From positions 1-31,514 of the IMG/VR virus record IMGVR_UViG_3300045988_120591: a DNA stretch of 31,514 nt; one strand, written 5' to 3'. A program made the position numbers and the translations under genes. The stretch's first letter is position 1; every line of letters starts with the position of its first letter. Origin of the DNA: a virus. This document shows positions 2,872 to 29,021 of this stretch, one piece after another. The notes beneath the pieces were generated by a model. The model saw only the letters and a list, made by a program, of their open reading frames with translations. It ran no database searches and was not told the origin of the DNA.

Positions 2872-2882
2872 TCTTTCTGTTA

Positions 2883-3407
2883 TTAAGCACCTACAACGCT
2901 TTGGATAGCTTCTGCAGATAACTCATAAGGATAAGAATCTGAATCTGTTGAAAGTGTCAGAGTATAAGCATTCTGATCACCTTTAGCAGTACCAGTAACA
3001 CCCGTACCAGCGGAAGCGCTTACATAATCATCTTTACCTAAGAACCAATACTTACCATTGCTATCTTCAACAACAACTGCAAGCTGACCAATTGATAAAG
3101 CTGCAATCTCTACTCGTTTTGCTGTTTCCATCTTTGTAAATACAAGAGCAAGCTCATTACTTACATAATTAACACCAGCACTTTCATCTACATTTAAAGT
3201 TGAGGTTAGAGAACCAGTAGCCTTTCTAAATTGGTAGTTATACCATTTAGCTGAAGACTCAAGAGTAATAGCTGAAATCATATTGCTCTCAGGATCAACC
3301 GTTACACTTTTAACATCTGCATACTGGGTAATCCATACCTGTTTGATTCCACCCAATGAAGGTTGGCAATCAAGTGTGATTCCTGCGATAGTTATTAAAC
3401 AAGCCAT
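2883..3407 (-). CDS. Major tail (tube) protein, 174 aa
   Basis: Size, position after the capsid gene, and sequence character typical of siphovirus major tail proteins (..GGIKQVWITQYADV.., ..DSNGKYWFLG.., ..TGTAKGDQNAYTLTL..). No in-frame TGA. Confidence 0.55.
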   Translation of the reverse strand: MACLITIAGITLDCQPSLGGIKQVWITQYADVKSVTVDPESNMISAITLESSAKWYNYQFRKATGSLTSTLNVDESAGVNYVSNELALVFTKMETAKRVEIAALSIGQLAVVVEDSNGKYWFLGKDDYVSASAGTGVTGTAKGDQNAYTLTLSTDSDSYPYELSAEAIQSVVGA

Positions 3408-3447
3408 AATTTCAATATCATTTAGAAGTTAATAAAATCTATTGAAA

Positions 3448-4353
3448 TTAAGCCTTGGCACCTAATACTACTTCGTCAGGGAAAGCAACTTGTACACCAG
3501 CGTTAAATTCAATAGCTAATCTGAACTCGCGGAAATCCTGTGAATACCACAATTCGAATTTCTCTTCATCGTTCATCATATCTACACCATAGAAGAAGTT
3601 CTTGTCTAACTGACCAGCAACAATCTTATCAGTTCCATTAAGACCATTAACAGCAATAACCTTAACCTGCGAACCAGGAAGATAAATCTCACCATCAAGG
3701 CTTTCTCCGCTATAGTGGAAATAGTTCTTCTCAACAAGTTCATTTACGAACTTACGGAACATATCAGCACCAACAAGAATAGAAGCACCATCAAGAACCT
3801 TCTCAGGAATTGCATTATAAACTGCCATAATGTCAGTATAGGCAGATGTTCCAGCAATTGTTACATCAACAACACCATCAGCAGCACCAAGGATCTTTAA
3901 CAGACCATCAAAATACTTCAGGTTATTAGTTTCTGAAGCCGTATCACCCTGCCAGATAGCTATCTCAATAGCCTCTTTTACGTTCTCTACAACAGCATTT
4001 ACGAAATCCTCTTCAAAAGGAAGAGTCTTCTGACCAGCGGCTACCTTAACTGCATACTGAGTCCAGTATTTCAGCATAGCCTTATCGCAATATGCCATAT
4101 TAATCTTAATATTACCAGTCTTAAGAATTCTCTGAGAAAGAGTCTGAGTTCCAGACTCATCCCAACCACAAGTAAGACCATCACCGAACTGAACATCGGT
4201 AGATAACAGGTTAAGAGCAGCATCAGTTTTAATATCTGTCTGAAGATTAAATAAACTTGCACTCTTAGCTTTTAAAACCGCTTCCTTAATAAGAGGGAGA
4301 CGTCTTTGCTCCACATAAGCAGGAAGAGTTGTCATTACAGGACTATTTGCCAT
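3448..4353 (-). CDS. Major capsid protein (HK97-fold type), 301 aa
   Basis: Lies directly downstream of the protease and scaffold genes, with typical size and sequence character. All four Trp are TGG. Ends in TAA. Confidence 0.75.
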   Translation of the reverse strand: MANSPVMTTLPAYVEQRRLPLIKEAVLKAKSASLFNLQTDIKTDAALNLLSTDVQFGDGLTCGWDESGTQTLSQRILKTGNIKINMAYCDKAMLKYWTQYAVKVAAGQKTLPFEEDFVNAVVENVKEAIEIAIWQGDTASETNNLKYFDGLLKILGAADGVVDVTIAGTSAYTDIMAVYNAIPEKVLDGASILVGADMFRKFVNELVEKNYFHYSGESLDGEIYLPGSQVKVIAVNGLNGTDKIVAGQLDKNFFYGVDMMNDEEKFELWYSQDFREFRLAIEFNAGVQVAFPDEVVLGAKA

Positions 4354-4374
4354 AATTATTTAAAATTTTATAAA

Positions 4375-4989
4375 TTAACCAATAAAGTTTTTAAGCTTTC
4401 TATCTATTTCTGCTATCCCACTTATAGGAGCAGTTGTTTTATTTTCAAGTGTTTCCTCTGCTGAAAAAGCAGCACTCATCTTACTCATTTTTTCTACAGT
4501 CTTTTCAGTAGCTTCTGATTTTCCTTCAAGTTCTGCTACTTTCTTAACAAGCTTATCTACAATATCGTAAAGCTCATTAATTTCGCGATGAATAGCGTCG
4601 ATTGCATCAGTCTCAGTTTCTTTAACACCGTCTGTTTCAACAGCAGGATCAGTAACTTCCTCAGCTTTTACTTTCTTAGTTCCACAAGCAGCATCAACCT
4701 CAACAGTTCTCATACCCTCTTCTGGATCAACTTCAGCTTTAGGATCAGTAATGGACTCTACTTTACCGTCTTTAACAACAATCGTTTTGCCATCTTCGGT
4801 AACATACTCACCATCAGCAGCAGGTGCATATTCGCCAGTATCAGTATCCATTGTATATACACTCATACCTGCCCTTAGATCCTCATCCTCACTACCATCG
4901 TAAGTTAGAACTCCAGCACTAGTCTTAACATCGTTAAATTTTGCTAAGAGTTTACTAAGTTCGATTCTCAGTTTAGTTAATTTGTTCAT
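4375..4989 (-). CDS. Scaffolding protein (acidic, coiled-coil), 204 aa
   Basis: Lies between the protease and the capsid gene. Highly acidic and Lys/Glu-rich with helical heptad character. Confidence 0.55.
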   Translation of the reverse strand: MNKLTKLRIELSKLLAKFNDVKTSAGVLTYDGSEDEDLRAGMSVYTMDTDTGEYAPAADGEYVTEDGKTIVVKDGKVESITDPKAEVDPEEGMRTVEVDAACGTKKVKAEEVTDPAVETDGVKETETDAIDAIHREINELYDIVDKLVKKVAELEGKSEATEKTVEKMSKMSAAFSAEETLENKTTAPISGIAEIDRKLKNFIG

Positions 4990-5584
4990 ACTTAAATTTA
5001 AAATTTTTATGATAGTTTTGTTTATTTTTGCAACATTTTATAATAGCACTATGATCAAAATTTCCGTTTCTTTCAGCGTCCATAGCAGATTTCCAAGTGC
5101 ATATATAAGTATCATTAATATCTGTCATAATTATACGTTTACTTACTTTTTCTTTCTGCTGTTCAGTTTGTTTAGTTCCCAATCTACATTCTCTTAACTT
5201 TAATTTTGTTTCATCCTTTAATACTCTTCCAGACTGTTTTAAAGACATTTTGTGTTTAGATTCTTCACTGTGTTTAAATCCAGTATTAGAACCTCCACCT
5301 TCATTTAAATTATAACCATTATTTAATGTATCAAATAACTGAATATATTTAATTTCTGCATTATTTAGTTGTCTTTTCAATAATTCTGTAGAAGAACAAC
5401 AAAAGATTTGAAGAATTTCCCATTTAAAGTTATTGAATCCATATTTCCTAATCGCTCTATGAAAATATGTAAGATTAGAACTGTATTTATGTTCATTCTT
5501 TCTTCTCAAGAAATTATTTGTTTGTCCTACATATTTATTGCCATTTATAAGATTTGTTGCTAGATATATAACTCCACTATACAT
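4973..5584 (-). CDS. GIY-YIG homing endonuclease 1 (I-TevI-like, with NUMOD3-like repeats), 203 aa
   Basis: Motifs GVIYLATNLINGNKYVGQT, RRKNEH, YFHRAIRKYG, NGYNLNEGG, then GFKHSEESKHKMS and KDETKLKL. Inserted between the protease and scaffold genes, overlapping the scaffold start by 17 nt. Contains no TGA. Confidence 0.8.
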   Translation of the reverse strand: MYSGVIYLATNLINGNKYVGQTNNFLRRKNEHKYSSNLTYFHRAIRKYGFNNFKWEILQIFCCSSTELLKRQLNNAEIKYIQLFDTLNNGYNLNEGGGSNTGFKHSEESKHKMSLKQSGRVLKDETKLKLRECRLGTKQTEQQKEKVSKRIIMTDINDTYICTWKSAMDAERNGNFDHSAIIKCCKNKQNYHKNFKFKYEQIN

Positions 5585-5585
5585 T

Positions 5586-6176
5586 CTATTTAACTCTTTT
5601 TATTTTTCTCAACATTTTTTGAATCTCTTTAAGTTCCTCATATTCATCAGATTGTCTTTCTAAAGTAAACAATCCCTCAATAGAGAACCCTTTAAACTTG
5701 CCAGCTTTAATTGCATCCCATATAACAGGATTATTTACTTTATAAGTAGCAAATAATGAACCATCTGGACAATCAGCAAATTCAACTGGATTAATTCCTC
5801 TATCTATATCTTTAATATATAGTTCTTGAAGAATTATTCCAGGAATTACTGAATCTTCCAAATGTTCAATATTTACATCAGTAGTTCTCTTATCATACAT
5901 CATTTTTTCAGCCATTAAACGGAGAGTTTCTTTATCATATTGAATATAATATTCTCCGTTTTTACTATCCCGTCTAAATATAGGTATATCACATACCATT
6001 AAACAAGAAGTAACTATATGTTTTTCTTCATCCATCGAGAACTTCTGAGATTCCCCAAAAGCAAGCCAATTAACTTGGGTTGCAGGTTTACTGGTCAATG
6101 CTACGAACTCTATTCCATCACAATCATCAGCAATAATTGCTTGATATAATGGAAGATCATTATACATTTTTTCCAT
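5586..6176 (-). CDS. Prohead protease, XkdF-like serine protease family (from memory), 196 aa
   Basis: Position upstream of the scaffold and capsid genes. The C-terminal KGFSIEG motif and overall layout resemble XkdF-type phage proteases. Ends in TAG. Confidence 0.55.
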   Translation of the reverse strand: MEKMYNDLPLYQAIIADDCDGIEFVALTSKPATQVNWLAFGESQKFSMDEEKHIVTSCLMVCDIPIFRRDSKNGEYYIQYDKETLRLMAEKMMYDKRTTDVNIEHLEDSVIPGIILQELYIKDIDRGINPVEFADCPDGSLFATYKVNNPVIWDAIKAGKFKGFSIEGLFTLERQSDEYEELKEIQKMLRKIKRVK

Positions 6177-6255
6177 TTTTTATTAATATATAAGCTATTT
6201 TAAAAATGTAATATTGTTACAATCTTTTATTTTTATATATTTATATACTATCAAA

Positions 6256-6304
6256 TGTCAAGTTTTTTACTCAAATTTGTATCTAAGATAAATAAATTTT
6301 GACA
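6256..6304 (+). repeat. Dispersed 50-bp element, copy 1 (49 bp, most divergent)
   Basis: TGTCAAGTTTTTTACTCAA...AAATAAATTTTGACA, aligned by eye with copies at 15367, 21575 and 29022. Confidence 0.8.
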
Positions 6305-6307
6305 TAG

Positions 6308-6351
6308 CACTACTATATAAGCACTGATAATCAGCAACTTACATAGTAGTG
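6308..6351. other. Nested inverted repeat downstream of the tape-measure gene
   Basis: CACTACTAT (6308-6316) pairs with ATAGTAGTG (6343-6351). It encloses the palindrome CTGATAATCAG (6324-6334). Confidence 0.4.
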
Positions 6352-6375
6352 TGTCATAAATTTTACTCACTTTAG
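6352..6375 (+). repeat. Partial fifth copy of the left half of the dispersed element, overlapping the tape-measure stop codon
   Basis: TGTCATAAATTTTACTCACTTTAG compared with the consensus TGTCAAGTTTTTTACTCACTTTTAG. Confidence 0.55.
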
Positions 6376-8714
6376 AAACTTGCATTTGATTCTGTAACTG
6401 CAACTTTAGTTTGAGCAGTAGTAATATCACTCTCAACTACATAACATTTAACTGGTTGATTCAATTCATCAGTCTCTTTATTGCCAAGTAAGTTTCGAGT
6501 ATATTCTACAGGAGCTGTATTTAAAGCAGCAGGAGCAGTAGTTCCTGCATCACTTCCAGAACCTCCAGATGAAGGAAGCTGCTCATTTTGGATAGCTTTT
6601 ACATTAGCAATACCAGCTATAACAGCAGTAGCAGCTGCAATAGGAGCAAGAATAGGTCCTACAAATGGAATACCCACCATAGCTTTATATGCACCTTGGG
6701 CAGAACTGATAGTATCAATAATAGCTTGAGTAGTAGCTAATGCTTTATAAACTTTAAATGATTTCTCTCTTTGCTTCTCTGATTTTGAATCATCACTAGC
6801 TTCTTGTTTAAATACATTAGCTAAAGCTCCACTTAAAGAAGAAGCTACATTCATAGTAGCTTGAATAGCCTGTTGCTTTTTAGCTTGTCTATCTTTAAAT
6901 GCTTGAAGATCTGCTTCTTCTCTTGCATTAGCTGCTTCTGATAAAGCTATATCATTAGCTTCTTGCTGTAATTTAATTGCTTGAGATTGATTGGCATATT
7001 CTTGTTCAGTTATCAGCTTATTGTTATATTGCTCATCTAAAATAGCTTGCTGTTGAGACATCAATTCATTCTCTCTTGTAATTCTATCTTTAGTGAGATT
7101 ATATAACTGTTCATTATAAGCTAATGTATCTTGATATTGTCTTTGAACATCTTCTCCAGATTGATAAAAATCCGTTGAACCAAATTGTTGAACTCTAGTT
7201 TCATAACTTCCAGATTTACCTGCAGATAATGCAGCCTCTTTATTTGCAAATAATTGAGATTCCCTATCTTGCATTTCTTGTAATGCAGATAATCTATCTT
7301 GAAGCTCTGTTTTATAAATTTCTCTCTGATCTTCTAAATATTCTTTATTATATGCATCATTTACTTGTTTAACTCTTTTTAAATATTCCTCTTGAGTTAA
7401 TTCTTTTTTATCGAGTAGCCATTTTAAATCATTTAATTGTAACTGATAATTTTCTTTTAAAATTAAATTTTCTCTATCTGTTTCACTTAATAAAGTTTTT
7501 TCATTATCAGACCAATATTTATCAATAGCTGCTTTTTTAGTTTTTATTTCATCTTGAAGTTTATCTAAAGCCTGTTTTCTAGCTCTTGCCGCTTCTTCTT
7601 CTGCTTTTTTTCTATCTTCAAGAATTTTATTTCCTGTTTTTACAAGATTTTGATAATCCCTTAAAGGATTTTTAGTCTCGTCTAAGTATTTAGTGTTATC
7701 TGCTAAACTTTCAGAAACTCTTTGTAATTCTAATCTCGCCTCTTTTACATCCTTCCCAGTTACTTTTTTTAAGAATTGTTGTCTAGATAATGTATTTTTA
7801 AATAATTCTGAGATTTCCTCTTCTGTTTTACCAAATCTTGTACCTATTGATAGTAAATCTTTATCATAAGCAGTTAGGGCATTCCTAAATGCCTTATCTA
7901 ATTCTATAATATCTTTCAAAAATGCCTTAGCTTCCCTTTCTTCAAAAGTTTGAAGGGTAACAGCAGCTCCTACTTTTGATAATTCCTTATATGCATCAGT
8001 AGCTTTAATTACATTTTCTATCTCAGTTTGTAGTTCTGGATTTAATTTGATTAGGTTTTCATACTCTTCTCTTCAAAATGATTCTTTAGCTTGAGTTCTT
8101 AAATTCTCATTTCTTTGTCTAATATTTTCTATTTCATCGCTTGTTAATTTAGCTTCATCTTTTAGTGAAGTAAGTTTATCTATAAGCAAACCAACTGCTA
8201 CAAGTAGAGCACCAATTCCTGTTGATACTAATGCTGCCTTAAATCCATTCATAGCAACTGATGTACCAGTTATTGCTACAGATAATGCTTTAAATGATTT
8301 TACTCCATTAAGAATACCTTCACCTAAACCTTTTAATCCTCCAATTCCCTGAACTATAGCAATTGCTGCTTGCAATTTAACCATAGTTTTTTGAAGATTC
8401 TCTGTATCTTTTCCAAATAAAGTGAATGCTGCACTAACAGCTGAAACTCCTCCAGCTAAACCTCCTGCTACTTGATTTATACTGTCAAACGCCTTAACTG
8501 CATTTACAGTTTTACCTTGCATAGATTCTGTAGCAACACCTAACTTATTTTGAACATTAACAAGTTCTTCAAGCTTTTTAGTATAGTCAGTACTACCAAT
8601 CTCAAGATCTTCAAGTTCAGCCGTCAAGCCAGCTACTTCTTCTCGTAGCTGCTTGATCGACTTTGAACTGGTTTTAGTATCTACACTAATTACTTTTTTA
8701 ATTTCTTCAGCCAT
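6372..8714 (-). CDS. Tape measure protein, 780 aa (fusion of track ORFs 8073..8714 and 6372..7919 through TGA at 8073)
   Basis: Both fragments share a frame (coordinates = 0 mod 3), and I checked that 7920-8072 contains no TAA or TAG. The sequence has long coiled-coil stretches plus Gly/Ala-rich hydrophobic segments typical of tape measure proteins. Ends in TAA. Confidence 0.75.
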
Positions 8715-8715
8715 A

Positions 8716-11700
8716 TTAGTTTATAGTTACGTTTTTAACAGTATCTTCTGTTAGTGTTAAATTCTCTGTATATTTAACTGTTCCTGTTGGTCCGTCAGAT
8801 ACTCTAAATAAAAATTGAACTCCATTTTGAGCATATATTCTATAACTTCCATCATCTCTCATATAAGTGACATTTAAGAAATTATCATTTTCAGTTAGAA
8901 TCTGATTAACGCCAGAAGGAATACCTCCAGTAGAAGTTTGAAGCTTTCCTGTAATAAGAATAGCTTTATTTGGGTCTGGAGTTTGAGTAAACATACATTG
9001 AGGGCCATTTATACTTCCTTGTTTATAAAGACTAAAATAGAAACTCCTTTGATTATATGTAGTATTCTCATTATAAGTAACTGTTAATTCTGTTTCTCCA
9101 GGTTGCCCAGATTCAGGTGTAATGCTTACAATTTCATTTGGACTATATCATCCTAATTCTCAAGGAATATTAGAAGTAACTGTAATCTTTTTAGTCCCAG
9201 CTTTATAATCTACAACTGGATCTGAATCGTCAAATGATATATACTCACCTAAATTTTGAATTCCAGCTAAATAACTATTAATATCTTGAACTTTAATAAA
9301 TTCACATCTAACTGTAGAATCTGAATTAATATCATAAGCATCAATCTTATTAAGTACCCAGTAAGAATCTTCAAAATAATAGAACTGTCTAAGTAAATCA
9401 TACTTAACATCTAAATCATCCAATCTTACAAAGCAGGTAACTTTTTTAGTATTTACATCAAATTGATCATTATAAAATTCACTCCAGAATCTACTATATA
9501 AAGTAGATTGTTCTAAATAACTAACTTTATCAATGTATATTTCTCTTGGAACCCCAAAATCTCAAGATGAAGATATAAAATTACTAGAAATAGTGTATCT
9601 TATAAATTGTGGTAATATGTTTCTTCTAATAGCTATTTTTTGTCCTGCAGAATTATTTTCACTATTAGTATAGATATAACAAGGTTCTCCATCATTAAGA
9701 ACTGACATTTCTGTAACATCATCAGTAATCCAATAATAAATAGGATTACCATTTATATCTTTCATATTAACATCATCATTATAAAATAATAAAGTACTTT
9801 TTATCTCTTCAAGACTTTGTTCATTATTATCTAATGTATAAAAACAAGTTTTTGCAAATATATCATTTCCAGGAACATCCCACCATTCTGTAGTCTTACC
9901 TTGGTCTATAAAATTAGCTCCATATAAATCCTGATCATTAGTCTTTACTTCTGTAGAAGTTCTATTAAATAAACTATATGTAATATTATCATTCATAAAT
10001 GCGGGTACATAAGTATTTCCAGAATTAAAGAAATTTCTAAAATACTTATCTGCATCTCTTGCTGATACTACATTTTGAAATATATTTCCAGAATATAAAT
10101 CAGTATTATCACTATTAAAATTATATCCAGTGTTTAATCTTTGCTGACCATAATCTATATCATATTGTCTATCATATTTCTTGGCATAATATGTTTCTGG
10201 AGTTTCTAATGACATAGTGTATCACTTCTTATCAAATAATATTGGATTTACATTGAAGTCTTTAGAATAATCAATTCTTTTACTCCAATCAGAGATTATA
10301 TTCTTAAAGAAATTATTTCTAGTATGTATTCTAATTGTTTTACTATCAATATCTTTTGTAAAATATAATCCAAATAGTTTTGCATAACTTAATAAGTAAT
10401 CAGCAGGAGATTGTTCTGTCTTTAATAATTTCTGCTTAGTAATTAAAGCATCAGAAGTAACTGCTGAAGGCCAAGAAGCCTTTAATGTATATTGAGTTTC
10501 ATCATATAAAAATTCTGACCATCCAGCCACTCTATTTGCTGTGACATTATTAGGATGCATATTATCTGATTGTCATACTGCATCTTGATTGTATAAACTC
10601 TCAGTTCTTCTTGCAATTTGTATATTCACTAAAATCTTATTAACTTTAGGCATATCTTTTACAGTAAATCTGAAAGTATTAGTATTATTATCACTTTTAA
10701 AATAATACCTATTTCCACTATCTTTTACAAAGTGACCAAAAATAGCTTCTACAGGTGCATCAGTTAATGGATAATAATTAAACCAAGTTCCAGGTCCTGA
10801 TTGAACTTGAGTGTTTATCTTATTTGTAAAGTTATATAAAGGAGAGTATGCTATAGGTCTACTAGGAGATGAAGTATCTTCAGCATCATATATCAATATC
10901 TGTGCTGTTACTGATGTTCTGTAAGGATCATTCCTATAATCTGTATTTCCAGCTCTTCCGTTCCTTACATAAGATAAATATAAATCATTACCTGCTGAAA
11001 CATTTGCATTATAAAATAGCTGAAAATCAACATTAATATTAACAAGAGTATTAGCAGGAGTTGCAGATAAATCAATTACTTGACCTTCCCCAGGAACTAT
11101 TACATCACTCCCTGTAACACTAAATCTACCCCAGTTTACTGAAGTAGTTGTTCCTCCAGGTTTTAATCCGCACCAAAATAAATCATTATATTTAGTAAGT
11201 TTGGCATTCTCTGTAATATTATCTGATTCTTCATCTTCAGTAGATCCTAATAAAGGCAATGCAACAAATGCTTTATTTCAATATGGATTTGAGTAATTAA
11301 AGAAATCTGGGTCCATTATAACATCATATCCAGAATTTTCTTTTCTACAGATAGTTTCAATTAACTTACTCAATTTTAAAGCTGGCCTCTGCATATAACT
11401 TCTAAGATCTCTCATCTCCCATTCTGTATATGCTCTATTTAATTTAGCTAATCCATACCCATTATAAGGTGTATATGTAACTCCTGAATCTGTCTTACTA
11501 GTAGGAAATATGCTATTTTCATTAGTATTTATTAAACAAGTTTCATTATCAAAGTTTTCATATAAACCATTATATGCTGGAATGAATGTTAAATAGTCAT
11601 AGATTTGACTGCCTTCATTCGTTTTATTTCAGTCAAAACAAGTATTTACAAAATCTTTGTTAATATAAAAATTAAGTTCAGTATCAGCAGGAAGTGTATT

Positions 11701-21428: not shown

Positions 21429-21479
21429 TAGTGTAAAGAAAAAAAAAATAATTTTTTATTAAAAATAATACCCGAATTA

Positions 21480-21511: not shown

Positions 21512-21515
21512 CAGT

Positions 21516-21599
21516 ATGAAACTAAAACTAATAATTCTAGGCAGGTGAAAATCCTGCCACTTTTTGAATCTTACTGTCAAGTTTTTTACTCACTTTTAG
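21516..21599 (+). promoter_or_regulatory. Leader region: a mini-ORF (10 codons to the TGA, 27 codons to the TAG) or a short RNA ending at the terminator
   Basis: ATGAAACTAAAACTAATAATTCTAGGCAGGTGAAAATCCTGCCACTTTTTG... The TGA at 21546-21548 forms the first three loop bases of the hairpin. Confidence 0.3.
21540..21565 (+). terminator. Rho-independent terminator or attenuator upstream of the helicase gene
   Basis: GGCAGG-tgaaaat-CCTGCC followed by ACTTTTT. Confidence 0.6.
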
Positions 21600-21624
21600 T
21601 AGTAAGAAAATAAAAATATTGACA
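21575..21624 (+). repeat. Dispersed 50-bp element, copy 3
   Basis: TGTCAAGTTTTTTACTCACTTTTAGTAGTAAGAAAATAAAAATATTGACA, located 30 nt upstream of the helicase ATG. Confidence 0.85.
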
Positions 21625-21654
21625 AAAACTTTAACTATTTAAATTATTAAAATT

Positions 21655-23376
21655 ATGAAAACATATTTAAACAATTTGATTAATGAGTTGCCAACTAACT
21701 GCTTATTTGATAAAGGAAAAGTTGGATGTGGAGGAACTTCAATGGCAATTGAATGTAATAAGCCTTATGTTATTTGTGTTCCATTTACTAGCTTAGTTGA
21801 GAATAAACTTCAACAATATCCAAATGAAAGACGTACTGAGAAGATATTTGGAGTTTATGCTGGAGTTACTATTAAAGAGATTAAAGATTACGTAGATAGT
21901 GTTAAATGTCCTAAAATTATTGTTACATATAACTCACTTCCGAAGGTTATTTCTGCAGTTAATACTAAAGAATACAGTTTATTAGTAGATGAATATCATA
22001 TACTATTTAATCAGTATAGCTTTAGAAAGGATGCTATTAAACCTGTTTTAGAGAACTATAAATTATTTAAAGATTTTACATTTATGACTGCAACTCCTCT
22101 TGAAGAAGAATTCGTATTAGATGAATTAAAAGATTTAGAATTAGTAAAACAAGAATGGGATGATGTTATTGAAACTAAGGTACAAGCCGTTAAATGTAAG
22201 AATGTTGAAGCTTCAACTATTAAATTAATTAATGCTGTTCTTAATAATCAAGTTGAAGGTAATGTTTATATATTTGTAAATTCTGTGGACTTTATAAAGA
22301 ATCTTATTCAGAAAGCTAAACTTACAGAAGAGAATACCAGAGTTATATATTCCAAAAACAATAAAACCAAATTATCAATTCATAATTCTACAGTATTAGA
22401 TGAACCTAAGAAAATAAATTTATTAACTTCTACAGTATTTGAAGGTTCTGATATTTATGATGAAAATGGAAGAATTGTAGTAGTAAGTGATGCTCAAAAA
22501 GCACAAACTCTTCTTGACATCTCAACTTCAATCCAACAGATTGCTGGCAGAATTAGAAATAGTAAATATTTAAACTGGATAACTCATCTTTACTCAGCAA
22601 CAAGATATGCAGATATTAGTTATGAAGACTTTAAAAAGAAGAATATCCAGAATATTGAGGAAACTAAGATTGCTGTAGATGCTTACAATGCAATGCCTGA
22701 AGTTGCAAGAAAGAAACTTAAAGAATTTACATCTGATACTTATATCCAAGTAAATGATGATTTTACATTTACATTTGATCCAAATATGGCTAAGGTAGAT
22801 ATTTTTAACTTTAAAGTGACAAGAGGTTTATATTCTATTAGAACGAATCTTAATAAAGAATATATAAAGAATGGATTTAAAAAAGTAATAGAATGTGAAG
22901 ACAACTCTATTAAGATTGATTTTGAATCTGATAATAAACCATTTAAAGAACTAATTAAAGAAGTTAGAACAGAATGGGAAAATAAATTTAAACTGAATAC
23001 TCCACTCTTAAATGATGCTATTATTAAATATCCTTGGTTACCAGAAGCTATTAGTAAATTAGGATTCGAAAAGATGGCAAGCTTGAAATATTGCATTTCG
23101 GATATTAAAGATGCTCTATTAAAGAAATCAAATAAAAGTGCAGATAATAAAGCAGCTAAGAAGTTAAATCAATCAATTACTCTTGGAATGTGGTATTCTA
23201 ACGCTGATATTAAAAAGTTTGTTAAAGAAGCTTATGAAATTAGTGATATTACTATTACTCCAAAAGCAACAGAAATTGATAAATATTATGAAGTTAAAAA
23301 ATGCCAGAAAAGAGTAAATGGTAAACAAACTGAAGGTTATGTAATTATTAATAAAAAATTTGTATTTAATAAATAA
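21655..23376 (+). CDS. SF2 (DExH-type) helicase-like replication protein, 573 aa
   Basis: Motif I-like GKVGCGGTS, motif II LLVDEYH, motif III MTATP and motif VI QQIAGRIRN. No in-frame TGA, and all five Trp are TGG. Ends in TAA. Confidence 0.65.
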   Translation: MKTYLNNLINELPTNCLFDKGKVGCGGTSMAIECNKPYVICVPFTSLVENKLQQYPNERRTEKIFGVYAGVTIKEIKDYVDSVKCPKIIVTYNSLPKVISAVNTKEYSLLVDEYHILFNQYSFRKDAIKPVLENYKLFKDFTFMTATPLEEEFVLDELKDLELVKQEWDDVIETKVQAVKCKNVEASTIKLINAVLNNQVEGNVYIFVNSVDFIKNLIQKAKLTEENTRVIYSKNNKTKLSIHNSTVLDEPKKINLLTSTVFEGSDIYDENGRIVVVSDAQKAQTLLDISTSIQQIAGRIRNSKYLNWITHLYSATRYADISYEDFKKKNIQNIEETKIAVDAYNAMPEVARKKLKEFTSDTYIQVNDDFTFTFDPNMAKVDIFNFKVTRGLYSIRTNLNKEYIKNGFKKVIECEDNSIKIDFESDNKPFKELIKEVRTEWENKFKLNTPLLNDAIIKYPWLPEAISKLGFEKMASLKYCISDIKDALLKKSNKSADNKAAKKLNQSITLGMWYSNADIKKFVKEAYEISDITITPKATEIDKYYEVKKCQKRVNGKQTEGYVIINKKFVFNK

Positions 23377-23390
23377 AAATATTATATTTG
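23359..23390 (+). promoter_or_regulatory. Bacteroidota-type promoter P3: TTTG-N20-TATATTTG, with an ATG 4 nt downstream (a leaderless-type arrangement)
   Basis: TTTG at 23359-23362, TATATTTG at 23383-23390 and ATG at 23395. It overlaps the helicase 3' end. Confidence 0.6.
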
Positions 23391-23394
23391 TGAT

Positions 23395-23556
23395 ATGGAA
23401 AGTGATATTAAAGAAACAATTAAACAAACAGAAGAGTATATTAAAGAATTGGATAAATGAATGCTCGAATGTAAAGAGGCTACTAAAAGATTTGGTGATA
23501 TTATAGATAAAGTATTAAAAGATAAAGATTATATGTTTATTTCTAAATTTGATTAA
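23395..23556 (+). CDS. Small hypothetical protein, 53 aa
   Basis: MESDIKETIKQTEEYIKELDKWMLECKEATKRFGDIIDKVLKDKDYMFISKFD. One in-frame TGA. Ends in TAA. Confidence 0.45.
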
Positions 23557-23558
23557 TT

Positions 23559-23699
23559 ATGGATGATTATTTATTTAAAAAGCTTGAAGAACTAGAATAT
23601 AGAATAGTTCAACTAGAAAACCAGAATAGAGGTTTAGTTTGGGAAGAAGTAAAAGAAACACCCAAACCAGAGATTCCTAACGCAACATATATTGACTAA
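23559..23699 (+). CDS. Small hypothetical protein, 46 aa (coiled-coil)
   Basis: MDDYLFKKLEELEYRIVQLENQNRGLVWEEVKETPKPEIPNATYID. Starts 2 nt after the previous stop. Confidence 0.4.
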   Translation: MDDYLFKKLEELEYRIVQLENQNRGLVWEEVKETPKPEIPNATYID

Positions 23700-23700
23700 T

Positions 23701-23841
23701 ATGAAGTACTTTACATATAAATTATGCTTAAATGGAGTAAATTACGTTTATGTAATTCCCGAAAATAGTAAATTCTTAGTAGATTTACAAACTGGAGAAT
23801 TAATACCTAAAGATGAGAAATTATTTGAGATAATGGAATAA
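23701..23841 (+). CDS. Small hypothetical protein, 46 aa
   Basis: MKYFTYKLCLNGVNYVYVIPENSKFLVDLQTGELIPKDEKLFEIME. Starts 1 nt after the previous stop. Confidence 0.4.
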   Translation: MKYFTYKLCLNGVNYVYVIPENSKFLVDLQTGELIPKDEKLFEIME

Positions 23842-23844
23842 ACA

Positions 23845-23879
23845 AAAAGGAGGGTTATTTGCCCTCCTTTTCTTTTTTA
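23845..23879. terminator. Strong bidirectional terminator between convergent transcription units
   Basis: AAAAGGAGGG-ttatttg-CCCTCCTTTT followed by CTTTTTT. It abuts the stop of the minus-strand GIY-YIG gene at 23880. Confidence 0.8.
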
Positions 23880-24449
23880 TTAAACATATCTTCACTTGAA
23901 TCCTTTAGCTGTATTTGCTAATCCACCACATACTCTACTAATAGCTCCTCTATCAGTTCCTACAGATTTGGCTGCTTCTGTGCAACTTTCATACTCTTGA
24001 ATAAAATTACCATCTAAATCATACTGAGCTACTTTACGACATCTTTGTTTGTTATGAGCATCTACTTTAACTCTTCAAGATTCTGGGCAATTATGTTTCT
24101 TTCCCTTATTAGAATTAGACAGTTTCTTCTTTCATTCAGAATTAAATTTGACTCCGTAATTGCCTCCTTCTCCTCCAGGTTTCAAATTTAAACACATAGG
24201 ATCAGTGTCCCATTTATCTCCAATTAGTTTGTATTCTAATTTAGATAATTCATCTGCATTAGTGCAAGTTGCCAAAATAATCTTTTGGTATGCATTAGGG
24301 AATCTTTTGTAATAATTAGTAATAATCCTTCCTGATCCTTTATATGGATCTTTATTTATGTCTTTACCTCTATAAATCCTTTTCCCAATATAATACTTGC
24401 CTCTTAATGTACCTGCAGTTAAAATTATTTTATAACAATAGTAAAACAT
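23880..24449 (-). CDS. GIY-YIG homing endonuclease 3, 189 aa
   Basis: YKIILTAGTLRGKYYIGKR.., ..EYKLIG.., NLKPGGEGG. Continues through TGA at 24132, 24075 and 23892 to ..VAQYDLDGNFIQEYES..TAKGFKWRYV and TAA at 23880. The frame was checked triplet by triplet. Confidence 0.75.
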
Positions 24450-24901
24450 TATATAATAGTAAATTTCTGTCGTCTTTGCATCCCGTCTTTATTCTTTAAT
24501 CCCAAGTGTATTCAACTTGCTATACCATTCCTAGGCCTTTCATATATCAACTGGTCGAAATCAAATTCTTCAATAGCTTCAGCAATCCAACTTTGGAATA
24601 CTTTCATATTACCATTAATTGGAGATATATCTGCTGCATACCCTGTTAAATGAGCAGAAGTTGAAGATCCTCCTACTGCTTTATTAAGCTCCTTATTTCT
24701 AAAACCAGAGGAAATCCTGATGCCTGCGTTACCAAGCTGATTGTCATCACAATACTTTGCCCATCTCTCTCTTATTGGGTCTAAAAGCTTCTCGACCAAC
24801 TCTATCAGGTGCTCTGTTATACTCTCATCTGGAGTGTTATCTATATGCTTAATTGAAGCAGTATCAGATCTTGTTAATTCTTCGAGTGTGAAATACTTCA
24901 T
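24449..24901 (-). CDS. Endolysin, peptidase M15 (M15_3-like zinc D,D/L,D-peptidase), 150 aa
   Basis: FTLEEL..., SSGFRNKELNKAVGGSSTSAHLTGYAADI, FDQLIYE. Continues through TGA at 24512 as ..GIASWIHLG.. to TAA at 24449. Confidence 0.75.
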
Positions 24902-25062
24902 TATTTAAGTACATCTTTAATCATAACATATCTATAAAATAGATGTGAAGCTACACCTATTACAAGTAATACTACAGTAATCCAAAAAGGAATTACTTTA
25001 ATTAGTAAACATATCAGCAGAATAATAACTACTGCAATTACATATTTTAACCAATATTTCAT
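24901..25062 (-). CDS. Holin-like small membrane protein, 53 aa, two predicted TM segments
   Basis: MKYWLKYVIAVVIILLICLLIKVIPFWITVVLLVIGVASHLFYRYVMIKDVLK. Its TAA overlaps the endolysin ATG (TAATG). Not in the ORF track because it is shorter than 60 aa. Confidence 0.6.
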   Translation of the reverse strand: MKYWLKYVIAVVIILLICLLIKVIPFWITVVLLVIGVASHLFYRYVMIKDVLK

Positions 25063-25063
25063 A

Positions 25064-25720
25064 TTATATTTTATTTAAAATTATACTTATCTGTATTCCA
25101 GTTCTTCTTAGATGTACTCAAGTATCATAAGGCATAGGTGTATCACAGAATGATAAACCTAAAATGCCAATATCTTTATCCTCAGTCTTTAAATAAAATA
25201 CTGCTATTTCATTCACTCTGTTGGATTTAAATGCATAATATAATCTTGGATCATCTGCTTCTAAACTATCTATATTACCAAACCATCCATCATTCTTAGA
25301 AAACTCTATAATTGAAGTATAGTCAGATAACAGGAAATCTTTATAATGGCTACTTACAGGTCTTATTCCTGGTTTTACTTCCTCTGCATTCATTACTCCA
25401 TAGGTAAATGGAAGTCCTCCTAATCCAGTAGTTCCATTATGATATTCAATAACCCAAGCTCTATCAGCATTGGTACTTTGAAGCAATTCTTTAAGCTTAT
25501 ATTTAATCTTCAAAGTTGCTTCATTTCTTGCAATAGTTTTAGAATTGTGAGTTTGTTCAATATAGGTTACAACCTTATTATAAACAATAGAGGGATTAAG
25601 TGTAATAACCATTACATAGGATATAAATATTAATCCAATCCCTGCTTTAAATATCTTTAGTAATCCATATTTATCTACTCATTCTAATACCTTTCCAAAC
25701 CAGTTTAATTTATTTTCCAT
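25064..25720 (-). CDS. Membrane-anchored protein of unknown function, 218 aa
   Basis: Track ORF 25118..25612 extends upstream to ATG 25718-25720 (MENKLNWFGKVLEWVDKYGLLKIFKAGIGLIFISYV..) and downstream through TGA at 25118 to TAA at 25064. Two in-frame TGA. Confidence 0.55.
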
Positions 25721-26145
25721 TACATATTATCAGAACAAGTACCCAGAGTATTGTCTACAGCTAAATCAACTCTAACAAATACTCCAGTACAAATATCTTT
25801 GAACTTCTGATAAAATGGAGTAAAAATTAAAGGATAAGAAATATCAACTTCTGGATATTGGTTATTAAATCGGTTAATTATATTAGTTAATGCTAATATT
25901 CCAGCTGATTGCTCTTCAAGCTGATTATTATCAGTCTCATCCCATCTTGCTATAAAATAGAGATTTAAAGAGTAAGTAATAGTATCCTCATCCATATTAA
26001 ATGTATTTGGAGTTATATAAAATACATTATATTCAATAGTTGGGATACTATTAAGTTCATATATATCCTTACTTCCTACAAAATTAATATTGGGTTCTTC
26101 AAGAGCACAAGCTTTTAAATTGTTTATTAATTCAAAATACGTCAT
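25720..26145 (-). CDS. Hypothetical virion/neck protein, 141 aa
   Basis: ATG at 26143-26145 directly follows the TAA of the upstream gene (MTYFELINNLKACALEEPNINF..). Function is inferred from position within the portal-connector block only. Confidence 0.45.
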   Translation of the reverse strand: MTYFELINNLKACALEEPNINFVGSKDIYELNSIPTIEYNVFYITPNTFNMDEDTITYSLNLYFIARWDETDNNQLEEQSAGILALTNIINRFNNQYPEVDISYPLIFTPFYQKFKDICTGVFVRVDLAVDNTLGTCSDNM

Positions 26146-26146
26146 C

Positions 26147-26830
26147 TTACTTACTCTTTTTATTGTTATCACTTGAAGGGAAATCATAAGCTCTTTGCAG
26201 AGGACCTTCACAAGAATTATATCTCCAACCTTTACCTCTAGCTCCACCTAACCAAATAGTGCAAGATGAACTTGAATACATATTTGGATACATATCTTTA
26301 AGAGGTTTATAAGAATACAATTCAGGAAAATCATTATAATATGTAATTACCCAATTTTGTAATCTTGTTTTAAAGAAATCTGCTTTATCTCTATAATATT
26401 TCTTAATAAGATTAACTTGATTAATATCAGAAGTTAAATCTTTCTCATCATCAGTCCTCATAACACCAAAGTTACTAAGCTTAAACGAAATAGGTATAGT
26501 AATCTCACTTAATACTTGATAAAGTAAATAAGGCTGAATATAGTAATCTAGCAATTCTTTATATCTATGATTTTCTGGGTCATCTATAGAAGTAGGATCA
26601 TAAATAGGAGGTTCTATTGGATGAACTGGTTTATTTGGGTCTTTTCAATCAATTACTAATTTCTGAATCTTTTCTAAGAGCTTAGTTCCAATTAATGACT
26701 GAAGCTCAATATCTTGTGCAAGTTTAATTGCTGACTGAAGATATTTACCAGAAACATTATTGTCTAAATTGGATTCTGATTTTATATAATCTTCAGATAT
26801 TAATAGTACATTTCTATAATTATTTTCCAT
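26147..26830 (-). CDS. Head-tail connector-like protein, 227 aa
   Basis: Track ORFs 26645..26830 and 26147..26554 share frame 2 mod 3, are joined through TGA at 26645, and have no TAA or TAG in the gap. The ATG overlaps the portal stop. The function is positional. Confidence 0.45.
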
Positions 26831-27945
26831 TATTCAACTTGTTTAGTATCAGCTTCATTAAGGCTAAATGGTGAAATTGTGATTGAATTCTGCATTCCAA
26901 AGATCTTATCAAATGAATCACAAATCTCTTTCTGAATAGGTCTAATCATAGTTCTATTATAAAGCTTGAATGAAGATTCAAATTCTTGCTCATTAAAACC
27001 AGTTGAATCTGAGTTAATTCCAAATAAGTTAGGATTAGCTCGGAAAGCACAGAATATTTGATCTCTTGTTCTCTCAGATAACGATTGATATTTCTCATCA
27101 AAATCATCAGAATCTAATCTTTCAATAGTAGTCTTATTTGCCTCATCTGCATTATATGAAATCAATATTCTGCCAGCATTCTGATAACCAGAGAACTTCT
27201 CATTAATATTCCTCTCAATCTCCTCTCTAATTTCATCTGTAGGTTCCCCATTATTAAAGTTAATAATAAGATTACCCATAAATCCATTATTGATGTTATT
27301 TAAATGGAATTCATTAATATTTTTCTCAGTTTCACAAGATAAAATGGCAGCTCCATAAACAGGAATAGGATATACTCCTCTTGTTATATAACCTTTATTA
27401 TAAAATATACTAGCTGGATTTTCATCAGCAGCTCCAAATTTTGGATATTTTATAGCTTTTACAGACCAAGCTGTCCAATCAGTTGCATAATATAATATAT
27501 CATTCTTTTCACTCGACCTTACATTCATAAAATCAATATGATAGATCTCTGCAACTCTTCCAAGCATATCTCTAATTACTTGGATAGCATAACCTCCAAA
27601 TATCATCTTATCAATAGTGATTTTTCTCATTATATCAACTATTGTTTCACCTTTCTTGTTTACAACTACTTCAAATCCTGGAGCATTACATTTAACATCA
27701 TTACCAACAATAAAGTCAGCAGAACCATTAATAATAGATTGGAGAGTAGCAACATTTAAGTATAAATCTCATAGATATAATGGATATTTGTTATCTTCTC
27801 CCCACATTATCATATCAGAACCTCTTTTCTTTGTTTCCGTTGGAAGAACGATGTTAGATTGAATAAAAGGATCTAGGGCTGACATCATTATTTTACTTTT
27901 GTGCCCATTCTCATTTGTAGCCTTTACATTGTTTATTTTTTCCAT
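26830..27945 (-). CDS. Portal protein, 371 aa
   Basis: Track ORFs 27769..27975 and 26830..27630 share frame 1 mod 3 and join through TGA at 27769. ATG at 27943-27945. Portal-like sequence character (..GGYAIQVIRDMLGRV.., ..NAGRILISY.., ..FRANPNLFG..). Confidence 0.7.
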
Positions 27946-28540
27946 AAAGTACTCTGTTAATATTTTTATAACCACTTTTTTGTGCTTCTTTACAAGAATC
28001 TCATCTTTTAATAAAATTGCCGTCTAAATCTAATTGATTTACTGGTTTGCTTCACTTTTTACGTAGATTTTCTTTCTCCTCTTCAGTTCTATGTCTACCA
28101 TACATACCATTCTTCTCTCCAGATCTAGATTCACTCATTTTCTTCCGAGTATCCTCACTACATTTTTGCACTCCTTTTTTATCCTTATTTCAGGGATCTT
28201 TCCCAATTGTACCTCCGCCTCCTAGAGTTGAATTATATCCATTTTTAAATGTATCATATAAAGCTATATATTTAATTTCAGATGCATCTAACTGTTTCTT
28301 TAACAACTCTTTTGAAGAACAGGAAAATATTTTAAGTATTTTATAATCTCAATTATCTATACCATATAATCTGATTGCTTTATGAAAGTGATCATTATAA
28401 CTTCTTGAATTTGAATTAAAACTATCAGCACAATGTTGTTTCCATCTTATATCAAATGACCTACAAGTTTGTCCAATATACATTTTTCCTGTTACCTTAG
28501 AGCGGACCAAATATATTTCTCCAGTTTTATTTTCGCTCAT
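27893..28540 (-). CDS. GIY-YIG homing endonuclease 2 (I-TevI-like), 215 aa
   Basis: GEIYLVRSKVTGKMYIGQT, HFHKAIRLYG, NGYNSTLGGGG, and the NUMOD3-like GMYGRHRTEEEKENLRKK. Five in-frame TGA (28349, 28190, 28052, 28001, 27911). Ends ..CKGYKWEWAQK with TAA at 27893. The 3' end overlaps the portal start by 53 nt. Confidence 0.8.
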
Positions 28541-29019: not shown

Positions 29020-29021
29020 AA

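Follow-up and report, generated by a model that had tools for sequence, protein, structure and literature searches.

Does a phage that reads a stop codon as an amino acid use that codon evenly among its genes, or does its frequency depend on the gene? The question is raised by IMG/VR record IMGVR_UViG_3300045988_120591, whose whole stretch of 31,514 nucleotides (1..31514) is called here the window. The window holds one complete phage genome, assembled as a circle, with a 55-bp terminal direct repeat and 31,459 bp of unique sequence; it is a human-gut tailed phage of a common type in which TGA is reassigned from stop to Trp (code 4). Recoded gut phages and the idea of a 'lysis gate' have already been published by Borges et al., and the window adds to a known kind.

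TGA works as a sense codon in this genome. Reading it as such joins fragments into ORFs of 1160, 780, 726 and 415 aa, and the TGA at 439-441, seemingly a stop, becomes an internal codon of a 373-aa gene spanning the circular junction. Of about 640 TGA aligned with relatives, 496 stand opposite Trp, with Phe and Tyr next and Gly just 3 times, and this residue profile matches that opposite TGG. The whole genome holds 54 in-frame TGA and 83 TGG codons, a TGA share of 39%, and no tRNA. The recoded clade sits nested among relatives that have no in-frame TGA; the nearest standard-code relative, L038 (capsid identity 67%), has none, and its stops are 15 TAA, 2 TAG and 0 TGA. A single recoding origin for the window clade and two deep recoded lineages, L037 and L136, is an assumption. 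The genes discussed are as follows, with their TGA and TGG counts in the window and their TGA fraction in the clade.

1..654, minus strand: 5' part of a tail-associated gene (373 aa) that crosses the junction and runs to 30992; 2 TGA, 3 TGG
2883..3407, minus strand: tail tube protein (PHROG 19091 and predicted fold); 0 TGA, 3 TGG; clade 2/100
3448..4353, minus strand: major capsid protein (PHROG 11320/1623 and synteny protease-scaffold-capsid); 0 TGA, 4 TGG
4375..4989, minus strand: scaffold protein; zero Trp in the window; relatives 0/25 TGA
4973..5584, minus strand: GIY-YIG homing endonuclease 1 (Pfam GIY-YIG and NUMOD3); 0 TGA, 2 TGG
5586..6176, minus strand: XkdF-type prohead protease; 0 TGA, 2 TGG; clade 0.09
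6372..8714, minus strand: tape measure protein; 1 TGA, 2 TGG; clade 0.54
8716..12198, minus strand: giant tail protein 2 (1160 aa); 7 TGA, 12 TGG; clade 0.42
12152..12631, minus strand: NUMOD4-HNH homing endonuclease 3 (HNH-3); 5 TGA, 0 TGG
12634..14814, minus strand: giant tail protein 1 (726 aa); 5 TGA, 11 TGG; clade 0.31
15419..16221, minus strand: overlapping ORF pair g15562/g15419, like a G/GT-type tail assembly chaperone
16223..17470, minus strand: terminase large subunit (TerL); 1 TGA, 2 TGG; clade 0.47
18240..18572, minus strand: small membrane protein (g18240); 4 TGA, 2 TGG; clade 0.56
18541..19845, minus strand: HNH endonuclease 2, HTH protein and HNH endonuclease 1; TGA/TGG 1/5, 1/0 and 3/1, respectively
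21655..23376, plus strand: SF2 helicase-like protein (573 aa; weak Helicase_C_2 match, below the Pfam threshold); 0 TGA, 5 TGG
23880..24449, minus strand: GIY-YIG endonuclease 3; 3 TGA, 1 TGG
24449..24901, minus strand: Peptidase_M15_3 endolysin, with Trp47 and Trp130; the TGA at 24512-24514 is Trp130
25064..25720, minus strand: membrane-anchored protein g25064, adjoining the endolysin; 2 TGA, 3 TGG; clade 0.51
26830..27975, minus strand: portal protein; 1 TGA, 3 TGG; clade 0.13
27893..28540, minus strand: GIY-YIG endonuclease 2; 5 TGA in 215 codons

The AlphaFold model of the tube protein (pLDDT 74) has tail tube proteins of SPP1, lambda and Milano as its best PDB fold matches. In the g15562/g15419 pair, a T9 run (15735-15743) lies where the -1 frame opens, as for a G/GT-type tail assembly chaperone. 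Recounting bore out most of the TGA numbers of the original prediction, namely 5 each in HNH-3 and GIY-YIG endonuclease 2, 5 and 7 in the giant tail proteins, one each in TerL, portal and tape measure, and none in the helicase, whose 5 Trp are all TGG; the 5 TGA attributed to 18240..18518 came to 4.

The original prediction held that TGA is unevenly distributed and that per-gene ratios would depart from random given the Trp counts. In the window they do not: heterogeneity among the 31 Trp-bearing genes is not significant (chi2 34.8-36.2, 30 df, permutation p = 0.16-0.22), and genes with Trp but zero TGA number 9, compared to 7.4 expected. In this single genome, the per-gene spread cannot be told from random, as would be expected if TGA and TGG were interchangeable and patchiness were sampling noise from small Trp counts. 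Indeed, many genes put forward as TGA-free hold 0 to 2 Trp: both fibres and the scaffold have none, terS and the 'holin' 1 each, GIY-YIG-1 and the protease 2 each. Their zero TGA counts are correct, but with so few Trp they are scarcely informative. With annotation-defined classes and nominal, uncorrected p values, TGA makes up 2/18 of Trp codons in head genes versus 19/50 in tail genes (p = 0.04), and 20/34 in homing endonucleases compared to the remaining genes (p = 0.009). TGA-poor and TGA-rich genes alternate gene by gene, without contiguous early or late blocks.

It takes a comparison of about 40 related recoded genomes to show clearly that the helicase and the major head and tube genes avoid TGA, and at that scale the predicted unevenness stands. 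The clade TGA fraction is 0 for the scaffold, 0.01 for the capsid (1/154 over 40 alleles) and the helicase (1/115 over 25 alleles), 0.02 for the tube and 0.13 for the portal; it reaches 0.3-0.5 for tail proteins and TerL, and 0.6-1.0 for homing endonucleases, small accessory genes and lysis-associated genes. Counting each conserved Trp column once, which lessens but does not remove the non-independence of phylogenetically related alleles, genes remain heterogeneous (Kruskal-Wallis p = 0.0016, permutation p = 0.014), with TGA at 0.08 in head versus 0.39 in tail columns (p = 0.001), 0.61 in lysis columns and 0 in the helicase. The pattern recurs in L037 and L136.

Interchangeability has a further point in its favor. 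The mean minor allele frequency of TGA/TGG at 81 conserved Trp columns (0.159) equals that of A/G at 884 Lys/Glu/Gln columns (0.160), and TGA and TGG are therefore true synonyms. The mean state at conserved columns is nonetheless shifted, TGA being at 0.35 versus A at 0.66. When columns are polarised by the presence in L038 of a G-ending Lys/Glu/Gln codon, clade A in head genes is 0.47 at Lys/Glu/Gln versus TGA 0.08 at Trp (p = 0.0009), and in tail genes 0.67 versus 0.30 (p = 0.02). Since homogeneity is rejected by the column tests, by the polarised test and by replication in the two deep lineages, chance is a very improbable account.

Some genes have reached neutral parity (TGA versus A: g18240 0.77 versus 0.81, g15419 0.68 versus 0.77, g29076 0.83 versus 0.63), so that time since recoding is not limiting. 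Recent recoding was considered as a cause and ruled against, as ordinary synonymous A/G sites are already saturated. Saturated sites of this kind, together with head Trp codons held at TGG, point to graded selection against TGA.

We therefore favor, with a probability of about 0.55, a balance between mutation toward TGA and gene-dependent selection for TGG, its strength graded by expression. In this AT-rich genome, mutation drives TGG to TGA, just as it drives AAG, GAG and CAG to synonyms that end in A. Of the two Trp codons, TGA appears to be the costlier, probably because UGA is decoded less efficiently than UGG or is subject to competition from release factor 2 (RF2). If UGA is costlier to decode, selection would keep TGG with a strength that depends on the gene: most strongly in the very abundant capsid, scaffold, tube, protease, portal and connector proteins and in the helicase, more weakly in the terminase and low-copy tail proteins, and hardly at all in homing endonucleases, small accessory genes and the chaperone frameshift extension, which would lie at neutral A/G equilibrium. 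The expression levels and virion copy numbers in this model are assumptions drawn from general phage biology.

The chaperone pair offers a comparison within one locus, with a clade TGA fraction of 0.10 in the upstream, abundant part versus 0.68 in the extension. Other observations run against a cost set by expression. The global test in the window is non-significant; the correlation of a gene's TGA fraction with its overall A/G bias is weak (Spearman 0.24, p = 0.25); the helicase avoids TGA although its codons show no overall bias and high abundance is not expected of it, a result that the model does not predict; and the endolysin, whose codon usage is G-biased, carries a fixed TGA.

The original prediction offered two causes, different gene origins and a gate on lysis and assembly, which the evidence supports in part, though neither fits well as the main one. 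According to the first, code-4 donors supplied the TGA-dense genes, and standard-code phages recently supplied the TGA-free ones. The homing endonucleases fit this account: together they are TGA-rich, and GIY-YIG-1, HNH-3 and GIY-YIG-2 are mobile, each found in part of a set of near-identical relatives and missing from the rest. The head genes, which are vertically inherited, do not fit it. GC is elevated in the capsid region, but it is so in every lineage, including the standard-code L038 and L059; head genes and helicase are syntenic in all clade members, with mean identities of 81-93% and abundant synonymous polymorphism; and the closest standard-code capsid is just 67% identical, which argues against recent import. 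Moreover, Trp positions that standard-code outgroups also conserve carry TGA about as often (15/45) as the others do (11/36). Even for HNH-3, the nearest GenBank relatives are HNHs of standard-code phages (about 45% identity), which means that its TGAs arose in situ. As a general cause, different origins are thus most doubtful.

The second cause corresponds to the model of Borges et al., in which genes expressed before a phage-induced code switch would be TGA-free, and TGA in lysis and other late genes would block translation until UGA suppression sets in, and so time lysis. The helicase, the sole clear replication gene, fits this model, its other codons being unbiased, as do the lysis genes. 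The single endolysin TGA, originally placed just before the C-terminal motif, is in fact the W of S-W-I-H-L-G itself, that is, of the conserved S-W-x-H motif, two residues ahead of the conserved catalytic His. H84, D91 and the motif histidine are kept in all full-length homologs, which supports the earlier claim that termination at this TGA would remove the catalytic His. All 32 alleles, as distant as 33% identity, have TGA at Trp130 and all 32 have TGG at Trp47, and Trp201 of g25064 is TGA in every allele. No allele of TerL, endolysin, g25064, tape measure or either giant tail protein is without TGA, and the TGA-preferring classes of the Agate phages of Borges et al. (homing endonuclease, tail protein, lysis membrane protein) agree.

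Such a gate, however, lacks an encoded switch: this complete genome has no suppressor tRNA, RF1 or TrpRS, 2.2 Mb of clade loci (149 loci) hold no tRNA, and neither genome nor clade loci examined hold an RF- or TrpRS-sized gene. Capsid, scaffold, tube, protease and portal avoid TGA, the reverse of an assembly gate, and possibly early genes by the divergent region (g20097, g19793, g19089, HNH1) contain it. TGA number per gene is unstable (2 to 11 in giant tail protein 2, 1 to 6 in g25064, depending on the allele), and no +4 context adaptation is seen around TGA. Fixed A, found in 30% of Lys/Glu/Gln columns, is what neutral change at synonymous A/G sites most often yields here, so that fixed TGAs require no selection. 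The TGA-free helicase and the fixed lysis TGAs lend some support to the gate proposal, which we consider unlikely overall.

A host that itself uses code 4, with TGA as its own Trp codon and no code switching, would explain why no suppressor tRNA or code-change gene is found in the clade loci examined. Without +4 context adaptation, TGA behaves like an ordinary sense codon, as such a host would predict. The known free-living code-4 bacteria (Mycoplasmatales, Entomoplasmatales) are wall-less, whereas this phage has kept a conserved peptidoglycan peptidase, whose closest cellular homologs lie in Bacteroidales-type loci. The TGA share of 39%, compared to about 66-70% A at comparable sites, indicates selection against the codon, and the nearest relatives have no in-frame TGA. 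For nearly all gut phages with code 4, Borges et al. infer a host that uses the standard code. A code-4 host is accordingly quite improbable.

Among known systems, the closest are the code-4 gut phages of Borges et al. (2021/2022), Agate, Jade and the small clades Garnet/Amethyst/Topaz, whose 22-34 kb genomes are similar in size to the window's (about 31 kb). They share with it gut origin, code 4, a recoded lineage nested among standard-code relatives, a nearest standard-code relative already without TGA stops, TGA-rich homing endonuclease, tail and lysis-membrane genes, and a TGA-free replication gene. Borges et al. stress enrichment in structural genes, and in crAss-like phages a tail tube family is recoded by preference; in the window, it is precisely the major head and tube genes that avoid TGA. 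No suppressor tRNA was detectable in 65% of their code-4 genomes; the window is a demonstrably complete genome without any code-change module. The block-wise dual coding of crAss-like phages (Mgcod; Yutin et al.) likewise involves low-GC human-gut phages with a stop recoded in part of the genome, but in contiguous early and late blocks rather than interleaved gene by gene; the window genome is also three to four times smaller than theirs and has no suppressor tRNA. Phages of Mycoplasma and Spiroplasma likewise read TGA as Trp and need no suppressor tRNA of their own, but the window differs from them in its peptidase, TGA share and selection against TGA. TGA is also sense in the code 25 phages of Gracilibacteria/Absconditabacteria (PMC10746230), though in the window it is Trp, not Gly; related phages that, as L038 does, avoid TGA entirely are described in that paper as compatible with both codes. 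Finally, in the ordinary codon bias of highly expressed phage genes, the most abundant proteins are likewise cleared of the synonym that mutation favors. The capsid is also the most biased gene at Lys/Glu/Gln codons in the window clade, with the strongest G-ending bias in recoded lineages (0.57-0.73). The difference is that here the disfavored codon is a reassigned stop, and that its avoidance in head versus tail genes is 5-fold, compared to 1.25-fold for the general A/G bias.

Once TGA is read as a sense codon, the genes of the window become continuous. Open reading frames (ORFs) of at least 80 aa over the six frames then add up to 35.1 kb, compared to 25.0 kb under the standard code, pieces split by the standard code are joined into ORFs of 1160, 780, 726 and 415 aa, and the genes for TerL, the portal, the tape measure and the two giant tail proteins (giant1, 726 aa, and giant2, 1160 aa) are intact. 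All genes end with TAA or TAG, the lone apparent TGA stop (439-441) lying inside a conserved 373-aa gene. This gene spans the junction of the circle: the window, which has a GC content of 29.5%, carries an exact 55-bp direct repeat at its two ends (1-55 = 31460-31514), and is therefore a complete, circularly assembled genome with a unique length of 31,459 bp. Pfam and PHROGs profiles identified TerL, the portal, an XkdF-type prohead protease, a capsid-like virion protein, a Peptidase_M15_3 endolysin and, as endonucleases, three NUMOD4-HNH, three GIY-YIG and one T5orf172 protein. A 174-aa protein encoded downstream of the capsid gave an AlphaFold model of moderate confidence (pLDDT 74); tail tube proteins, namely those of SPP1, lambda, Milano, Mu and GTA, make up all of its best PDB matches, with modest scores.

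Features of the window
654 down to 1, then 31459 down to 30992, minus strand: 373-aa gene across the circular junction, passing the TGA at 439-441
656-2791, minus strand: 711-aa fibre protein
4973-5584: homing-endonuclease-like gene
12152-12631: homing-endonuclease-like gene
15419-16221, minus strand: overlapping ORF pair g15562/g15419
18541-19107: homing-endonuclease-like gene
19330-19845: homing-endonuclease-like gene
20807-21409: homing-endonuclease-like gene
20839-21655: strand switch
23880-24449: homing-endonuclease-like gene
27893-28540: homing-endonuclease-like gene

The seven homing-endonuclease-like genes (3 HNH, 3 GIY-YIG, 1 T5orf172) occupy about 12% of a 31-kb genome, and several of them vary in presence even between near-identical relatives. 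The strand switch is the only one of the genome: the helicase and T5orf172 genes point away from all others. GC content falls there to 22-25% and GC skew flips, and the region is probably an origin or an early-promoter region. In the g15562/g15419 pair, the -1 frame opens exactly at a run of nine T (15735-15743). This arrangement resembles the G/GT frameshift of tail assembly chaperones. Its position is unusual, upstream of the giant tail proteins and not directly upstream of the tape measure.

The amino acid encoded by TGA was examined in 138 related loci, retrieved from IMG/VR using TerL, portal and capsid as queries. TGA codons of the relatives face a Trp of the window in 496 of about 640 cases, followed by Phe and Tyr, which matches the profile of TGG. 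Gly is faced in only 3 of the roughly 640, which rules out code 25 (TGA = Gly). Within the window itself, paralogs have TGA where the partner has TGG (NLEwCT and NLEWCT; GFKwKY and GFIWKY). Moreover, 72% of 81 conserved Trp columns alternate between TGA and TGG among alleles, and the minor state is as frequent there (0.159) as in the A/G alternation of 884 conserved Lys/Glu/Gln columns (0.160, p = 0.73); the two Trp codons are therefore true synonyms. Judged from these alignments, the phage uses code 4, with TGA making up 39% of its Trp codons (54 TGA, 83 TGG). It is a real TGA-to-Trp recoded gut phage, of a kind already known. In-frame TGA is used by every relative with a capsid identity of at least 71%, as well as by L136, a deep recoded lineage (portal identity 62%), whereas it is essentially missing, with no more than one case per locus, from L038, the nearest standard-code relative (capsid identity 67%, 28% GC), and from every relative beyond it. 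In the homologous genes of L038 (IMGVR_UViG_3300029905_000019), TGA is absent both in-frame and as a stop (TAA 15, TAG 2); the codon is effectively unassigned in this phage, plausibly an intermediate before reassignment.

The original prediction held that TGA is unevenly distributed among the genes of this genome. Its TGA counts were reproduced with one exception, 18240..18518 (g18240), where we find four TGA codons and not five. As for the genes it listed as TGA-free, none contains TGA, but both fibres and the scaffold are without any Trp, and terS, g20531, GIY-YIG-1 and the protease have only one or two. Over the 31 Trp-bearing genes, permutation gave p = 0.16 and 0.22 for two gene sets, and 9 genes with Trp had no TGA (7.4 expected). 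Since this heterogeneity is not significant, the claim fails for the single genome on the very comparison with chance that had been proposed for it. Nominal, uncorrected comparisons of annotation classes in the window gave 2/18 TGA for head and 19/50 for tail genes (p = 0.04), and 20/34 for homing endonucleases compared to the remaining genes (p = 0.009). The 711-aa fibre protein contains no Trp, and the few Trp codons of its relatives are nearly all TGA (10/11).

At the level of the clade, some 40 recoded relatives, the gradient is real. TGA fractions, that is, TGA/(TGA+TGG), were computed on unique alleles.

TGA use at Trp codons in unique alleles of the recoded clade
Capsid: 1/154
Tube: 2/100
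Scaffold: 0/25
Protease: 6/69
Portal: 22/168
Connector-region genes: 0.11-0.14
Helicase: 1/115
Giant tail protein 1: 0.31
Giant tail protein 2: 0.42
TerL: 0.47
Tape measure: 0.54
Endolysin: 0.44
g25064: 0.51
g18240: 0.56
g29076: 0.77
Homing endonucleases: 0.7-1.0 (GIY-YIG-1 and HNH-2 lower)

To limit recounting of kindred alleles, each conserved Trp column was also taken as one observation. Genes still differed (Kruskal-Wallis p = 0.0016; permutation of between-gene variance p = 0.014), with column-level fractions of 0.08 for head genes, tube included, versus 0.39 for tail genes (p = 0.001), 0.00 for the helicase (p = 0.013) and 0.61 for lysis-associated genes. The pattern recurs in both deep recoded lineages: TGA is found in 0/3 Trp codons of the capsid and 5/5 of TerL in L037, and in 4/16 of head genes, 3/3 of the endolysin and 5/5 of the g20097 homolog in L136. 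Within a single locus, the chaperone-like g15562 has a fraction of 0.10 versus 0.68 for its -1 frame extension g15419.

Several explanations of this gradient were considered. Too little time since recoding can be ruled out. At sites where L038 has a G-ending Lys, Glu or Gln codon, the clade is already A-ending at 0.47 (head) and 0.67 (tail), and its A-ending share is the same whether L038 has G or A, so that synonymous sites are saturated; moreover, g18240, g15419 and g29076 have reached TGA parity with their own A/G baseline. At Trp columns shared with L038, TGA amounts to only 0.08 in head (p = 0.0009) and 0.30 in tail genes (p = 0.02). Nor is there support for new Trp codons arising as TGA while ancestral ones stay TGG, TGA being found at 33% of Trp conserved in standard-code outgroups and 31% of non-conserved ones. 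A difference in gene origins, the second interpretation offered originally, holds for the endonucleases, which are mobile, but not for the head genes and the helicase, which are vertically inherited and highly polymorphic at synonymous sites. Of 40 recoded capsid loci, 14 carry GIY-YIG-1 (64-100% identity), 5 carry HNH-3 (99-100%) and 2 carry GIY-YIG-2, and relatives that are otherwise collinear lack them; with their GIY-YIG/NUMOD and HNH_3/NUMOD4 domains and this presence/absence polymorphism, such genes are free-standing homing endonucleases. A general A/G codon bias explains part of the gradient. Head genes favor G-ending Lys/Glu/Gln codons (A fraction 0.55 versus 0.69, p = 1.6e-7), but this is a 1.25-fold difference compared to 5-fold for TGA, and at the gene level the two correlate weakly (rho 0.24). 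The GC content of the capsid gene (3448-4353) is raised in every lineage, standard-code ones included. Its G-ending Lys/Glu/Gln fraction is 0.57-0.73 in recoded lineages (the window, L002, L020, L037 and L136); this bias is limited to them, the standard-code relatives L038 and L059 having 0.16-0.34, and may reflect a different host tRNA pool. Finally, no +4 context bias of the leaky-termination type separates TGA from TGG.

After four tests, gene-specific purifying selection against TGA remains. With protein abundance ranked from general phage biology, the strength of avoidance would broadly track expected abundance: it appears strongest in the capsid, scaffold, tube and protease, then in the portal and connectors, lower in the tail tip, tape measure and terminase, and lowest in endonucleases and accessory genes. 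The low-TGA g15562 and high-TGA g15419 would be a within-locus case of the same order. Selection against TGA in abundant proteins and the helicase would oppose AT mutation pressure, and graded selection of this kind best explains the gradient of the clade. Avoidance in the helicase falls outside the abundance argument and is the best single evidence for an early-gene constraint.

The 150-aa endolysin matches Peptidase_M15_3 (E = 3e-14). It has the signature of M15/LAS-type zinc peptidases, an H-x6-D motif and a C-terminal His, and its SAHLTGYAAD segment aligns to 1lbu, a zinc D-Ala-D-Ala carboxypeptidase. H84 and D91 do not vary, and every full-length homolog, including those on contigs of more than 200 kb, keeps S-W-x-H. 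The last His is presumably the third zinc ligand, as known for the family. The endolysin TGA (24512-24514) had been placed ahead of the W; it encodes the W of S-W-I-H itself, and aligns to the invariant W of full-length homologs. A stop there would remove the conserved His, so that an active lysin requires decoding of this TGA. The earlier reasoning that termination would cost a catalytic His thus stands, the S-W-x-H histidine being conserved and lying past the TGA. Public databases contain lysins of 127 and 129 aa that end exactly at this codon.

It had also been proposed that recoding acts as a gate, in-frame TGA timing lysis and late genes, which is identical to the lysis-gate hypothesis of Borges et al. 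In favor of a gate, all 32 unique endolysin alleles, down to 33% identity, have TGA at Trp130 and TGG at Trp47; Trp201 of g25064 is fixed as TGA, and for several essential late genes no allele is free of TGA. However, a fixed A-ending codon is the commonest neutral outcome (30% of Lys/Glu/Gln columns), the number of TGA per gene drifts (2-11 in giant2) without a stabilized count, the +4 signature is absent, and assembly genes shun TGA. Structural and lysis classes range from 0.61 (lysis-associated) and 0.39 (tail) to 0.08 (head and tube); the helicase, a candidate early gene, has 1/115, yet the adjoining small genes g20097, g19793 and g19089, which may be early as well, carry TGA. A code-switch module (suppressor tRNA, RF1, TrpRS) was not found in the complete genome. 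ARAGORN and Rfam detected no tRNA in it, nor any in 149 loci (2.2 Mb), and the proteins scanned contained no release-factor or TrpRS/synthetase domain. Relaxed searches for a suppressor tRNA yielded nothing tRNA-like with Rfam at E <= 1, and nine ARAGORN candidates at the 80% threshold, all of them false positives inside coding regions; the one with a TCA anticodon, c[144,217], lacks a T-loop consensus, its stems contain mismatches and its fold z-score is -0.5. A gate is not required and is the less probable account, and the data favor TGA as a selectively disfavored sense codon over a purpose-built gate.

The window is a common gut phage. An identical capsid protein is found in 167 blocks of a public assembly collection, where human gut metagenome is the label of one source record or more; the contigs that carry it are all at most 50 kb, and the phage was never seen within a large host contig. 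In GenBank phages, tblastn with the capsid found no match. A genome collection searched for a host or prophage gave two distant matches only, at 47-48% identity. They lie on contigs of 20-26 kb from MAGs binned as Azospirillum sp. CAG:239 and Bacteroidaceae; both are probably binned phage contigs and little informative on the host. One relative lies at the end of a 148,631-bp contig, IMGVR_UViG_3300045988_175865 (L032/L087/L130), where the 10 kb upstream of the portal contain many fibre-like, TGA-fragmented genes and no host DNA; this contig may result from chimeric or concatenated assembly, or belong to a larger related phage. The nearest cellular homologs of the lysin (P0109; 52-54% identity) reside in contractile-injection-system (CIS) loci, L139-L141, adjoining PAAR and VgrG-like genes and flanked by Mfa-like fimbrillin and HU-HIG genes. 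Such a neighborhood, typical of Bacteroidales, is a weak hint to the host. The M15 peptidase of these loci may be a CIS component or cargo.

Known code-4 bacteria, of the Mycoplasma/Spiroplasma type, are wall-less. Their phages would need no peptidoglycan hydrolase and would be expected to have TGA as the majority Trp codon, whereas the window has a conserved M15 endolysin and a minority of TGA; the conserved peptidoglycan peptidase argues against these hosts. A broader reading, to which we give a probability of only about 0.15, is that a prevalent clade of ~31 kb with obligatory TGA in its terminase, tape measure, tail and lysin genes, and with no tRNA, release factor or synthetase, infects a probably walled, standard-code host and has its UGA decoded from an undescribed source, partial decoding serving as an attenuator that aids virion stoichiometry and restrains the lysin. 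Were the host of this type, UGA-to-Trp decoding would come either from some property of the host or from a small protein of the phage, one acting on tRNA-Trp or disabling RF2, and the copy-number-graded avoidance of TGA would reflect partial UGA decoding as a translational attenuator.

In practice, standard-code gene callers truncate or fragment the genes of this common phage. The clade is compact, abundant and naturally replicated, with hundreds of contigs of ~30 kb and, for each gene, about 40 diverged alleles, and makes it possible to measure what a reassigned stop costs in each gene. Borges et al. described code-4 gut phages that include small clades of 22-34 kb, with recoded and standard-code relatives close to each other, and detected a TGA suppressor tRNA in just 35% of code-4 genomes. 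The present clade sharpens the question, raised by that study, of how, in a standard-code host, UGA is decoded for the roughly two-thirds of code-4 phages in which no such tRNA is detected. In their Agate phages, one homing endonuclease, one tail protein and one lysis membrane protein use TGA preferentially.
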